Positions 13,037 to 60,920 of a stretch of 64,000 nucleotides of DNA are shown here, piece by piece (the first letter of the stretch is position 1; every line of letters begins with the position of its first letter). Source of the DNA: Ignavibacteria bacterium (GTDB lineage: Bacteria; Bacteroidota; Ignavibacteria; Ch128b); the NCBI GenBank assembly GCA_013177855.1, contig JABLYA010000005.1:7426-71425 (forward strand), in the 5' to 3' direction. The notes below the pieces were generated by a model. It was given only the letters and a program-made list of their open reading frames with translations. It was not told the origin of the DNA and made no database searches. The translations under genes were made by a program, and so were the position numbers.

Positions 13037-13047
13037 TTATATATTAA
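13037..13047 (-). promoter_or_regulatory. Conserved 11-mer TTAATATATAA (minus strand), candidate late promoter, 24 nt upstream of ATG 13012
   Basis: The same 11-mer occurs at a similar distance upstream of six or more genes. Confidence 0.5.
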
Positions 13048-21165: not shown

Positions 21166-21186
21166 ACCTAAATTATTATGTTTTCC

Positions 21187-21197
21187 TTATATATTAA
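21187..21197 (-). promoter_or_regulatory. TTAATATATAA (minus strand) 21 nt upstream of ATG 21165
   Basis: Exact 11-mer. Confidence 0.5.
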
Positions 21198-21285
21198 AAT
21201 AATGGTAATAAAACACAATAATTATTCTTTTGGTTTTATATATTCTTTGATTTCATTTATACATTTACTATCCTTAATTTCTTTA

Positions 21286-21495
21286 TTAAAAACTGTTTGG
21301 ATCATATTTATCAGAAATAAAGTCAAAAATTAATAATTTTTCTGATGTACATATATAAAGTAATTTAATGTCTTTTGAATTTTTCTTTGAATATTTTGAT
21401 ATATCACCTAAAATATCTTCATACGATGTTCTAGTAACTTTGAATATTGTTTGCGCATTTAAATTAAATGTTAGTTGATCCGTTAGACCAAACAA
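21286..21495 (-). CDS. Hypothetical small protein
   Basis: ORF only. Confidence 0.3.
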   Translation of the reverse strand: MFGLTDQLTFNLNAQTIFKVTRTSYEDILGDISKYSKKNSKDIKLLYICTSEKLLIFDFISDKYDPNSF

Positions 21496-21556
21496 TAAAA
21501 ATACTATAAATATTAAAAATTAACAATAATTTAACATAAAAATCATAAAAAAATAA

Positions 21557-21694
21557 TTTTCTTTAATATATAAGGAAATATATTTTATGTGGTTAAAATC
21601 TAAAGAAGGGAAGAACTTTCAAACAGAATTAACTCAAGATTTAATTTCAATTATTCATCATTTTTCTATGAAAATGTTTGCAACAAGAAAGTGA
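21557..21694 (+). pseudogene. tnpA: C-terminal remnant of an IS607-type serine-recombinase transposase (TnpA)
   Basis: ...KNFQTELTQDLISIIHHFSMKMFATRK resembles the conserved TnpA C-terminus (E-L-x-E-D-L-I-S-I-I-T-H-F-S...). The frame is closed by a stop at 21554-21556. Its stop overlaps the GTG of the TnpB-like gene. Confidence 0.5.
21563..21573 (+). promoter_or_regulatory. TTAATATATAA (plus strand) at the truncation point of the TnpA remnant
   Basis: Exact 11-mer. Confidence 0.4.
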
Positions 21695-22984
21695 AAACAA
21701 TTAAATTACCATATAAAACAACCGAAGATTTAACTTCTATATTCAAGCAATATTCCAATATTGTTAGGTATAGTTACAATCGTTTTCTTGAAAATAAGAC
21801 AGAAAAGGATATTAGAAAATTGTCTAAATCATTAAATTCAATTGATTTACTTAATTCTTGGTTAATTCAATGTGGTATAAAAGATGGTAAAGCAATACAA
21901 ACAAGATTTAAAACTGAAAAAGTAGTATTTGGTGGTAAACGCAATTTAATCAATAGATTAAAATCTAAAATAACTAAAGATGAATTTTCATTGAAAAGAT
22001 TATGTCCTATAAATATACAGGGTGAAGAACTTAAGCAGGGAAACAGAAATTTTAAGTTAGACATTATAGAAAACAATCAAATTATCTTTAAATTAAATAA
22101 AAATAAACACATTGAATTAAAATTACCTAAGTTACAATATAAAAAAAGAATTGTTTAAACTTCAACAATTAAATGAAATTAAACAAAATCAAAAAGGATA
22201 TACATATTCAATTAGATTTGATTTAAACAATATTTATATAAGTTTTGAAGAGTTTAAACAAGAACCGATTAAATTAAACGAGAATAGGTATTTAGGTATA
22301 GACTTGAACCCAGACACAATTGGTATTTCGGTTTTAGAAAACGATAGAGTGATTCATACTCAAGAATTTAGTTTAAAACCAATTTTTAGTAAAATTTTAA
22401 ATGAAAAATTAAGTTCTAATTCGGATAGGATGAAATATTTTCAAAACAAATTAAAATTTGAAACATTTGAAATATCAAAATCTATTTCATTAATTGCTAA
22501 ACAATTTAACTGTAAGTCAGTTTTCATTGAAGATTTACATTTTAAAGGTTCTTCAACGATAAAAATATCAAACAGGAAGAACAAAAATCTTTGGAAAAGA
22601 GAATTATTTATAAGCAATTTAACTAAAAGATTAAATATTTTAAACATAAAACTATATTTTGTTAATCCTGCTTACTCAAGTTTTATTGGAAACTTACAAC
22701 ACGATTATACTGATGCGGTCAATGCTAGTATTGAAATAGCAAGAAGAGGATTCGAATGTAGAATAAAGAAAAACAAGATGGGATTTTATCCAAAACTGTT
22801 GGTAAAACACCAATGGAAGGAAATGGCTACCAAACATACAGGTTGGAAGAAATTCTTTCTTGAAGTAAAAAACTCGAAATTGAAATATCGAGTTTCATTA
22901 GATGAATGTTTACATAAATTTAATGTTTTTAAGCAAAATTTAAGTCATAAAAGCATGGTTTTAAATTATGTTTTTTATGATTAA
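21691..22984 (+). CDS. tnpB: TnpB-like RuvC nuclease (IS200/IS605-IS607 accessory protein), split by a frameshift in an A7 run
   Basis: RuvC motifs YLGIDLN (D), VFIEDL (E) and DYTDAVNASIEIARRG (D). Removing one A from 22141-22147 joins the two ORFs as ...LQYKKELFKLQQL.... No CxxC zinc finger lies between the E and last D motifs. Confidence 0.75.
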
Positions 22985-23090
22985 TTATTTAGTTTATTGA
23001 ATTTTGTATTTTAAATATATGATTATAAACACTATTTTAAAACTTTTTTTTCAATAACCCACTACAAACCATAAAAAATATACATTTTCT

Positions 23091-23393
23091 ATGGATATTA
23101 AATTAAAAGAAAACGTAATTTTTACTCCCTATGATGATTCCAAATTATTGAAAGAAAAGATTTTAGAGTTTATTTTTGAATCTAAAACAGATAAAATCCT
23201 TTATAAAGGAAATCCTACTGGAATTAATTACAAATTGCTCAAAAAGATTTTACCTCTTGACCAAATTAAATTAGATAAAGATGCAAATTCATTAAATAAT
23301 TTTATTGAGATTAAATCTGATAACATTAGAGAGGTATATAATGACTTTATACAAAAAATGAATTGTAAATTATGTTTAATATACAAGATATAA
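23091..23393 (+). CDS. Hypothetical protein
   Basis: ORF followed by a terminator. Confidence 0.5.
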   Translation: MDIKLKENVIFTPYDDSKLLKEKILEFIFESKTDKILYKGNPTGINYKLLKKILPLDQIKLDKDANSLNNFIEIKSDNIREVYNDFIQKMNCKLCLIYKI

Positions 23394-47511: not shown

Positions 47512-49491
47512 TTATCTCTTGATATAATCGTATATTTTATTCTTTTCTAAAAATAATTTTCTTAATTTTTTAGTTTCTGTTTTATTTTTACCCAATATAT
47601 AAACATATTTATGTTTTTTTGATGTTTTCCTTACTAGACAATTATTTAATTCTCTTTTTGAATATTCTTTTAAAAAAGTTGATACCTCTTGTGGCATGTT
47701 CTCCCATAAAATTTTATATTTTTTACCCCAATTCTCCTTCCATTCTATGTTATTTAGTTTTGCTATTTTTTGCATATACTTGATTTTTGTATAATTTCTA
47801 TTATTAACCCAACCTATATCTGGATTATTTAAATTAAAATACAATTTATCACTACCAAATTTTTGACCCAAATAATAAAAATTACATGCTTGATAAATAG
47901 TACCAATTTCTTTTGCTTCTGTATCAGAATATGCTTCAAATATCCTGAAATTTGTATTTTTAACCATCCATCTTATTGACCACATTAACAATTTAGATGC
48001 TAAATTTTTTGGTGTCCAAGATGCGCAAGCACCTCTACTTATCAATTTTTCTATATCCTTTGTATCGTCACCTAAAAACTTTGAAAAAGAATTAGGTATA
48101 GACATAATTATAACACCACCTATTATTCCTTTATATGTTGCAATAAATCTATGAGTTGGTCTATTTGGCATTTTACCTAACCATTCATATTTTTTAATAA
48201 ATTTTGTTATTTCTTTTAATGTCACTTTATCATTATTATCAACATATTTTAATTCAAAATCATTAATATTTATATCATTAATATCTATGTTTTTTGTTTT
48301 CAAATATTCGATATCATCATTTAAGGTATTTAATCTTAAATCATATTGCCAACAATGATTCTTATTATAAATTTCATGTTTAATCAATTGATCAAAGACT
48401 GTATAATTTTTATCTATAATAAATATATAATTATACCCTTGTTCTCTACAAGCTTTTTCTTTAATGATGTTTTTTTCTAAATGTTCTTCATACCACTTTT
48501 TAGATTTTATTTCTATAATTAAATTTAATTTTTCATAATAAAAATCAGAATAATAATAATGTTCTATACCATTATACTCATATTTAATTGTAGGACCTCT
48601 TTTTATACTTATTATTGAATAATATTTATCTAAAAAATCTTTTTCATATGTTCCTTGATAATATAAATCTGAATTTTCGTATTTTTCTATTTTATAACCA
48701 TTTTTTATCATCTTTAAATAAAATTCTTCTAATTGCATAGGATAATAAACACCATATTTTTCATATATTATATTCATTAATTTTTGTTTAATAATTTCAT
48801 TTTTCATTGGATTTTCTACACCAAATCTTTCTACACAAGTATTTTTAAATTTTAACCTATTGTTATAATTTTCATAACCATATTTTTCTTTTTTGGTGTT
48901 TTTTATTTTATTTTTTATTTCATCAGATTGTAATACAAAATCACAACCATATTTTTTATTATTTGTCATTTTTAATTTTGATAAAATTATATCAGATTGT
49001 AAAGCATAATCAACTCCAAATTTATTGTTCATTGTTTCTAATGTTTTATTTTTAAATTCATCAGTTTGAATATAATAATCTTTACCATATTTTTTATTAT
49101 TGGTTTCCTTTTGCTTTTCTATATTTACAAAATTTTCATTACCATATCTTTTATTTTTTGTTTCTTTAGTTTTTAAAATATATTCGTCCGTTTTTGTATA
49201 TGAATCAACACCATATTTCTTAATACAAGTTTCTTTTTTCTTGTTATCGGAACATTTTTTACAAGTATAATAACCATAATTATTAATATTCCTTCTGTAA
49301 GAAAAAATGGAAATTTTTTGAGTTTTATTACAAATATCACAAGAAACTTCAATTATAGTTTTACTACTAAAAGGTAATTCATCAGGTATAATTTCTATAA
49401 TATCACCAGATTTTATTTCATAACCTAAATTTTTGTAATGTGTTATGTTTTTATTGGTTGTTTTTATTGTTAGTTTTTTAGTTAAAATCAT
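47512..49491 (-). CDS. Fusion protein: Zn-ribbon, KYG-repeat region, PD-(D/E)XK-like nuclease core, then a C-terminal GNAT-fold Mom-like domain
   Basis: Repeats K(K/R)YG(V/K)D.Y.QTDE x about 8. SDFYYEKLNLIIEIKSKKW gives a D..E.K pattern. C-terminal YEWLGKMP...GGVIIM...ISRGACASWTPKNLASKLL...FEAYSDTEAKEIGTIYQACNFYYLG. Confidence 0.45.
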   Translation of the reverse strand: MILTKKLTIKTTNKNITHYKNLGYEIKSGDIIEIIPDELPFSSKTIIEVSCDICNKTQKISIFSYRRNINNYGYYTCKKCSDNKKKETCIKKYGVDSYTKTDEYILKTKETKNKRYGNENFVNIEKQKETNNKKYGKDYYIQTDEFKNKTLETMNNKFGVDYALQSDIILSKLKMTNNKKYGCDFVLQSDEIKNKIKNTKKEKYGYENYNNRLKFKNTCVERFGVENPMKNEIIKQKLMNIIYEKYGVYYPMQLEEFYLKMIKNGYKIEKYENSDLYYQGTYEKDFLDKYYSIISIKRGPTIKYEYNGIEHYYYSDFYYEKLNLIIEIKSKKWYEEHLEKNIIKEKACREQGYNYIFIIDKNYTVFDQLIKHEIYNKNHCWQYDLRLNTLNDDIEYLKTKNIDINDININDFELKYVDNNDKVTLKEITKFIKKYEWLGKMPNRPTHRFIATYKGIIGGVIIMSIPNSFSKFLGDDTKDIEKLISRGACASWTPKNLASKLLMWSIRWMVKNTNFRIFEAYSDTEAKEIGTIYQACNFYYLGQKFGSDKLYFNLNNPDIGWVNNRNYTKIKYMQKIAKLNNIEWKENWGKKYKILWENMPQEVSTFLKEYSKRELNNCLVRKTSKKHKYVYILGKNKTETKKLRKLFLEKNKIYDYIKR

Positions 49492-60909: not shown

Positions 60910-60920
60910 TTAATATATAA
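60910..60920 (+). promoter_or_regulatory. TTAATATATAA (plus strand) 20 nt upstream of ATG 60941
   Basis: Exact 11-mer. Confidence 0.5.

Follow-up and report, generated by a model that had tools for sequence, protein, structure and literature searches.

A probable recently inactivated, non-autonomous IS607-family element with a candidate omega RNA in the genome of an AT-rich tailed phage

Introduction

When a TnpB-like nuclease gene is found next to the remains of a transposase gene, and downstream of a motif that resembles the promoters of the phage that carries it, has the phage taken over the nuclease, or is the locus the debris of an insertion sequence? The question is raised by a short region of a 64,000-nt stretch of DNA (the window) from a contig of 97,967 bp. 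The G+C content of the window is 25%. Among its genes are those for a portal protein, a head-maturation protease and a major head protein, and the genome is therefore that of a tailed phage, AT-rich and about 98 kb long. The region of interest is intergenic, lying between two phage genes, and contains a 35-codon open reading frame (ORF; 21587-21694) followed by two overlapping frames (21691-22158 and 22151-22984). The original prediction, made from the sequence itself, took these for a decayed IS607-type element whose transposase-less TnpB could have been domesticated under a phage promoter. Elsewhere in the window, a 659-aa ORF on the reverse strand (47512-49491) resembles homing endonucleases in its N-terminal region (PHROG 12131, E=3e-15) and carries a Mom-like DNA-modification region at its C-terminal end (PHROG 1384, E=1e-15).

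Results

Limits, termini and insertion site

To delimit the element, DNA was fetched around 82 related loci. A first MAFFT alignment of the left region was misleading and was replaced by pairwise BLAST. In the left sides of 16 independent copies, homology begins sharply at 21513 (TTAAAAATTAACAATAATTTAAC...), with unrelated sequence upstream, and on the right it ends at 23013 (...TTGAATTTTGTATTTTA). These limits define an element of 1,501 bp on the forward strand (21513..23013). Its boundaries, at which the flanks of more than 15 independent copies diverge, are accurate to about 3 nt (left) and 1 nt (right). The left end (21513..21586, +) comprises repeated CA(A)TAAA-like units, the native promoter-like and ribosome-binding region of tnpA and the 11-mer TTAATATATAA; it is 90-96% identical in all copies, and in the window copy it is some 7-13 bp shorter than in the others.

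The termini read TTAAAA...ATTTTA. Long terminal inverted repeats are absent, the two ends having only TAAAA/TTTTA in common, and the flanks of independent copies contain no consistent direct repeat that would mark a target-site duplication. The 16 independent left flanks end in ATA (nine), TTA (three), ATG (two), TTG (one) or AGA (one), with a T at position -2 in 15 of them, and the ATA at 21510..21512 (+) is accordingly a candidate target or TAM, and crossover site, for the window copy. The GG ends and GG target typical of IS607 elements were not found, since the right end is ATTTTA and the left flanks are of AT type; judged on these sequences, we read the arrangement as an AT-type variant of the IS607 target and core.

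The tnpA remnant

The 35-codon ORF (21587..21694, +) ends in ..ELTQDLISIIHHFSMKMFATRK, matches positions 154-183 of 187 in the NCBIfam IS607 equivalog NF033518 (E=1.4e-5) and also matches a PHROG transposase. Its origin becomes clear on pairwise BLAST alignment with a full-length relative, L003, in which window positions 21492-21607 correspond to L003 3549-3677 (the left end and the first 20 nt of tnpA) and positions 21600-21677 to L003 4111-4185 (the end of tnpA). On this alignment the ORF consists of the original ATG and seven codons, to which the last ~28 codons of tnpA are joined in frame. A common CTAAAGAA marks the junction, and the internal deletion amounts to about 434 bp when measured against the full-length copies L003 and L082; a second deletion, of about 33 bp, is found near the 3' end of the remnant. 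The full-length TnpA of L003 scores 170.8 bits against NF033518 (cut-off 110) and also matches Pfam Resolvase, which makes it a serine recombinase. The profile match, the alignment and the full-length score together bear out the reading of the locus as a decayed IS607-type element. The C-terminal TnpA stub that had been described is indeed there, but so are the start codon and the seven codons that follow it, so that the damage is an internal deletion. At 21691-21694 (GTGA), tnpB starts with a GTG that overlaps the TGA with which the remnant ends, and L003 and L082 have the same arrangement.

The lesion in tnpB

The 5' part of the tnpB pseudogene (21691..22134, +; frame 1, GTG start) is 88% identical at the amino acid level to residues 1-149 of an intact homologue, P0001, and carries the TIGR01765 N-terminal domain (E=3e-5); its frame continues to a stop at 22158. 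The 3' part (22135..22984, +; frame 2) is 90.5% identical to P0001 residues 148-432 and contains GIDLN, FIEDL and TDAVNAS with no zinc finger. DNA comparison with L001, L002, L003 and L082 places between them, at 22134..22135 (+), a 5-bp deletion (AGAAA in the relatives) that shifts the frame: relatives read CCTAATTTAAGAAA[C/T]AA[T/C]ATAAAGAAAGAATTG and the window CCTAAGTTACAATATAAAAAAAGAATTG. The split had been put down to the run of seven A's at 22141-22147. The run exists, and the removal of one A does yield a continuous frame of 430 aa, but the cause of the split is the deletion and not a slip. The run itself arose by a separate AAG>AAA substitution, so that in going from TTAAGAAACAATATAAAGAAAG in the relatives to TTACAATATAAAAAAAG in the window one passes through both a 5-bp deletion and the G>A change that makes A7. 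A "frameshift at A-run" in an annotation of the window should not be mended by removing one A.

Once a 5-nt gap is allowed, the window tnpB aligns codon for codon with L082, the closest intact copy, over 1,299 nt, with a dN/dS of 0.088 at a dS of 0.68. Among 142 columns that are invariant in 21 relatives, the window deviates at the lesion only, from which it follows that the inactivation is recent or, less likely, an artefact. An exact look-up of the split products, made to find the frameshift allele elsewhere, returned the source record only, and the single other contig from the same phage (Logan L079) stops inside the left end and does not reach the lesion.

The nuclease and its fold

More than 1,600 proteins, most of them 432 aa long, are homologous to the joined protein at E<=1e-3; the best 120 are 69-90% identical to it, and the TnpB family as a whole falls into 1,276 clusters at 50% identity. 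Profiles recognise the protein weakly (TIGR01765 at E=3e-5, TIGR01766 at E=1e-3). In Pfam, neither the joined protein nor P0001 matched a TnpB domain or OrfB_Zn_ribbon; the only Pfam label was PF27229 SSO2105_N, found precomputed in database tables. A profile search of the PDB by sequence gave nothing relevant, neither TnpB nor Cas12. An AlphaFold2 model of P0001 (the 90%-identical homologue), built on 86 diverse sequences, reached a pLDDT of 92.8 and a pTM of 0.85. Foldseek matched this model over its full length to Cas12f, to the IS607 TnpB of ISFba1 (8iaz) and to Cas12k in the PDB (probability 1.0, TM ~0.5), with RuvC resolvases ranking after them; among viral models the top match was a gut myovirus protein (TM 0.80), followed by Campylobacter phage proteins and, at a greater distance, by TnpB-like (Fanzor-type) proteins of giant viruses. 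The RuvC fold for which profile and structure searches had been proposed was in this way recovered.

The three RuvC motifs reported for the locus are present, and their acidic residues, D206 of RuvC-I (GIDLN), E282 of RuvC-II (FIEDL) and D343 of RuvC-III (TDAVNAS) in P0001 numbering, are invariant in 86 homologues down to about 30% identity. The window keeps the codons of this triad in a broken frame. The absence of a CxxC...CxxC zinc finger holds not only for the window copy but for all 126 full-length representatives, none of which has paired CxxC motifs, and the stretch from the PxYSS strand to RuvC-III is only some 10 residues long (SSFIGNLxxDYT). RuvC-III is followed by a conserved C-terminal extension of about 90 aa. 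The second gene is confirmed as a true RuvC nuclease gene, of the TnpB/Cas12f fold by its predicted structure, and the zinc finger is missing from it as from the whole clade.

A structured RNA at the right end

A candidate omega RNA (reRNA) scaffold of 147 nt (22867..23013, +) overlaps the 3' end of tnpB and finishes in a tail, AUUUUA, at the right end of the element. On the forward strand it can form helices H1 (22871-22894), H2 (22896-22925) and H3 (22949-22975), and a long-range closing helix (22933-22943 with 22997-23007) that ends 6 nt short of the right end. Each helix is kept with different bases in unaligned relatives of 30-60% protein identity; helix 1, for instance, is CUCGA/UCGAG in the window, CGGCGG/CCGCCG in L042 and UCUA/UAGA in L040. 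RNAalifold independently gives helix 1, with six of its seven pairs compensated, and MAFFT alignment of the distant 3' regions recovered this helix only, the others being reached through a hand-derived structure and a covariance model. Among 12 close sequences the paired share of cells is 91.8%, and it drops to 35-51% when the partners are slid. The covariance model recovers the structure from about 50 loci, at the 3' end of tnpB, and in 55 distinct sequences it yields 91.5% of cells paired (69.9% in shuffles, 33-49% in slid controls), with compensatory (double) changes at 40 of 41 pairs; as such an alignment is biased towards its model, we rely on the slid controls and the raw unaligned sequences, which agree with it. 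The four helices thus came through the covariance analysis suggested for this region, and the window copy scores 141 bits on the model, as high as the intact copies. A search of Rfam at E<=10 over 21300-23300 gave chance-level matches only, and no RAGATH-18.

By its position, architecture and covariation, the RNA is likely to be the omega/reRNA scaffold of TnpB. An RNA overlapping both the end of tnpB and the spacer at 22985..23090 had been expected. The overlap with tnpB is found, but the element ends at 23013, and 23014-23090 is phage DNA outside it. From 23014 on, sequence is unrelated between copies, and by analogy with known TnpB systems the guide would be read from the phage DNA that begins at 23014, with a predicted guide segment at 23014..23033 (+), directly 3' of the right end, placed by position.

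A promoter-like motif native to the left end

The 11-mer at 21563-21573 had been placed at the point where tnpA was truncated. It lies instead within the native left end, 14 nt upstream of the original tnpA ATG, and all copies have TTAATATATAT at this position. Its recurrence in the phage was correctly noted: the window contains 10 occurrences where 1.3 would be expected, and every occurrence is oriented towards an ATG and lies 10-45 nt upstream of it. The other sites are at 13037, 21187, 27934, 27967, 51368, 53976, 57092 and 60233 on the reverse strand and at 60910 on the forward strand, and most are followed by a T, giving TATAAT. The 11-mer is probably the main promoter element of the window phage. 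The idea that the left-end motif serves as a promoter common to all host phages was rejected, with 6 occurrences observed and about 9 expected in the flanks from other hosts. We also note a 16-nt identity, TTAATATATAAGGAAA, between the left end (21563-21578, +) and the promoter region of the neighbouring 1457-aa gene (21182-21197, -). It exists because the window copy is without about 7 bp that are present in all other copies, and may be due to chance, or to local conversion or selection.

The family and its distribution

Twelve distinct relatives are bounded by both ends: three are full-length (2,002-2,004 bp, with a tnpA of ~200 aa and a tnpB of 432 aa), seven have a deleted tnpA and an intact tnpB, and two are further degraded. 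The tnpA-less relatives display at least five different deletion junctions, and hence independent deletion events. Three copies of the element (L016, L018 and L020) share a single phage contig (IMGVR_UViG_3300005573_000060, 129,697 bp); all are without tnpA and have an intact tnpB, and between them they show two different tnpA deletion junctions. Reduction can go further, as in a mini-element of ~140 bp (L019:41-182, reverse strand) made up of 39 bp of left end and ~110 bp of right end, with no genes. Of the RNA scaffold this MITE-like element keeps the 3' portion, and a copy with an intact tnpB is found some 2.7 kb away.

Family copies occupy many different sites, with as many as three on one phage contig. 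They were found at 61 loci in IMG/VR, against 10 loci in 185,579 species (one genome each), all 10 of which are in metagenome-assembled genomes, and the window's own subfamily (70-90% identical copies) was found only in metagenomic phage contigs. No second copy was found in the 64-kb window by covariance-model scan and protein comparison. In a related phage, L080 (75-79% nucleotide identity), the homologues of the 1457-aa gene and of a 100-aa ORF adjoin with no element between them, window position 21231 directly joining 23040; this empty site is approximate, the intergenic region being diverged and about 280 bp shorter. The pattern is that of a mobile selfish element living in phages, and not of a gene fixed in a phage.

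Several further loci are recorded here as observations in their own right. The ~280 bp between the promoter of the 1457-aa gene and the left end (21232-21512) have no counterpart in L080, and within them a 69-aa ORF (21286-21495, -) gives a weak match to Phage_Gene33 (E=0.005, below the cut-off). The same 1,559-bp element occurs at L012:2776-4334 and L017:654-2212 with the same right flank and unrelated left flanks, a pattern that would fit recombination at the element or one-sided co-conversion. L001:5962-7313 and L002:5980-7331 have an intact tnpB and right end and no left end, homology beginning ~20-40 bp upstream of tnpB. These two copies cannot transpose and come nearest to being "fixed"; a locus common to both was considered and rejected, there being no upstream homology. 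In Campylobacter phage F379 (MT932329.1, 139437-140737), the TnpB gene appears as two "putative endonuclease" pieces, which makes it another split or frameshifted copy, in a cultured phage.

Discussion

We propose that 21513-23013 is, in all likelihood, a recently inactivated, non-autonomous copy of an IS607-family element in an intergenic region of the phage. Intact relatives encode a TnpA serine recombinase, a 432-aa zinc-finger-less TnpB and a structured RNA of 147 nt. By analogy with the characterised IS605/IS607 OMEGA systems, TnpA would move the element by cut-and-paste into a T-purine site, TnpB with an omega RNA whose guide comes from flanking DNA would cut genomes that are without the insertion, and repair of the cut genome would copy the element back in; in phages, this would amount to homing between co-infecting genomes. 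The window copy has kept both ends and the RNA scaffold intact, with tnpA gutted by the internal deletion and tnpB frameshifted, and should therefore be inert unless the proteins are supplied in trans.

Should the 5-bp deletion stem from a mistake in assembly or consensus calling, or be a variant present in the minority, the actual phage would carry tnpB intact together with the omega RNA, would lack TnpA and would possess an active RNA-guided homing nuclease, and at 22120-22150 the intact allele would read TTAAGAAACAA instead of TTA|CAA. Such an element would be of the commonest kind in the family, the tnpA-less, tnpB-intact type accounting for 7 of the 12 end-bounded relatives, and the gene is pristine outside the lesion, as both its dN/dS and its agreement with the invariant columns attest; the split products, moreover, are known only from the one source record. 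Nevertheless, sequencing errors do not typically take the form of a 5-bp loss outside a homopolymer (TTA|CAA), and we regard an artefact as unlikely. A further possibility is that the two frames still yield a single protein, through programmed +1 frameshifting or through slippage of transcription at the A7 run, or that their products act together as a split enzyme. Runs such as A7 can favour slippage, and the F379 homologue is likewise annotated in two pieces. However, homologues are single ORFs of about 432 aa, the relatives compared at the DNA level have AAAGAAAG and not A7, the deletion upstream of the run explains the shift, and no start signal precedes the second frame, all of which leaves this expedient barely credible.

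Domestication, in which a transposase-less nuclease under a phage promoter would be turned against competitors or the host, has a certain appeal, in that the remnant ORF is preceded by an 11-mer that recurs in the phage itself as a promoter-like motif and that a small deletion has made 16 nt of the left end identical to the promoter region of the 1457-aa gene. Whichever contig they lie in, however, all copies have the motif region as a native part of their left end, and the motif is not enriched in the flanks from other hosts. Both transposon ends are kept, tnpB is frameshifted, a related phage is without the locus and family copies sit at many sites; of the marks of a domesticated TnpB, namely lost ends, a locus fixed in related genomes and an intact ORF, none is seen here. 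This part of the original prediction has accordingly been abandoned as very improbable, and we return to the reading of these 1.5 kb as a dead insertion sequence and not functional DNA of the phage.

The family is another matter, and here we can offer a tentative suggestion, which we hold to be possible rather than probable. It may represent an IS607 lineage specialised on phages, an RNA-guided homing element that passes from one AT-rich phage to another during co-infection, endowed with a zinc-finger-less D-E-D TnpB with a novel C-terminal module, an undescribed class of four-helix omega RNA and an AT-type (T-purine) target or TAM in place of GG. If this were true, the tnpA-less, tnpB-intact majority would persist since TnpB and its omega RNA alone drive inheritance, in the manner of free-standing homing endonuclease genes. 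The family's mostly phage-contig distribution makes it a candidate system for the study of RNA-guided homing between phages. It is also an abundant family of compact 432-aa TnpBs that keep the catalytic triad without a zinc finger, and its 147-nt RNA scaffold, which lies outside Rfam, and its AT-rich apparent target motif could interest those who mine genomes for small RNA-guided nucleases. Neither the element nor the family overturns current understanding.

Comparison with known systems places the element within the IS607 family. It has in common with that family the serine-recombinase TnpA of its full-length relatives, which passes the NCBIfam IS607 equivalog, the tnpA-tnpB overlap (GTGA), the lack of target-site duplications and of long terminal inverted repeats, and a structured RNA that covers the 3' end of tnpB and abuts the right end; ISFba1, an IS607-family element with a RAGATH-18-derived RNA, supplies one of the structural matches to its TnpB (8iaz). 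IS607 elements have been described as GG-ended and as inserting at or downstream of GG (PMC13565253), whereas here the ends are TTAAAA...ATTTTA and the flank is [A/T]T[A/G], in place of GG ends and AGGAG/GAGGG TAMs (PMC13565253). The RNA also differs, matching neither RAGATH-18 nor any other Rfam model, as does the TnpB of the window's clade, which is without a zinc finger, has a C-terminal extension of ~90 aa and has no sequence match in the PDB. To this same clade belong phage-borne homologues from Lak megaphages and from Campylobacter phage CP220, where the gene is annotated as an IS200/IS605-family element, ISCaje4 (PMC2853527), although they are only 35-39% identical over 94-98% of the length. 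Cas12f (type V-F) is of similar size and is the best structural match over the full length (E ~6e-11, TM ~0.5); in contrast to it, the present system would take its guide from a transposon-end RNA, with no CRISPR array, and its nuclease is 12-16% identical and has no zinc finger. Loss of the C4 zinc finger has been reported in some large TnpB branches, among them clade RIIIr-4, which is represented in viruses and in which the RuvC-III aspartate is replaced by histidine (Altae-Tran et al., 2023, PMC10691335). Compared by description, the window family resembles RIIIr-4 in being viral and zinc-finger-less, and differs from it in its invariant RuvC-III aspartate. The novelties of this family are modest ones, namely its omega RNA and its AT-type ends.
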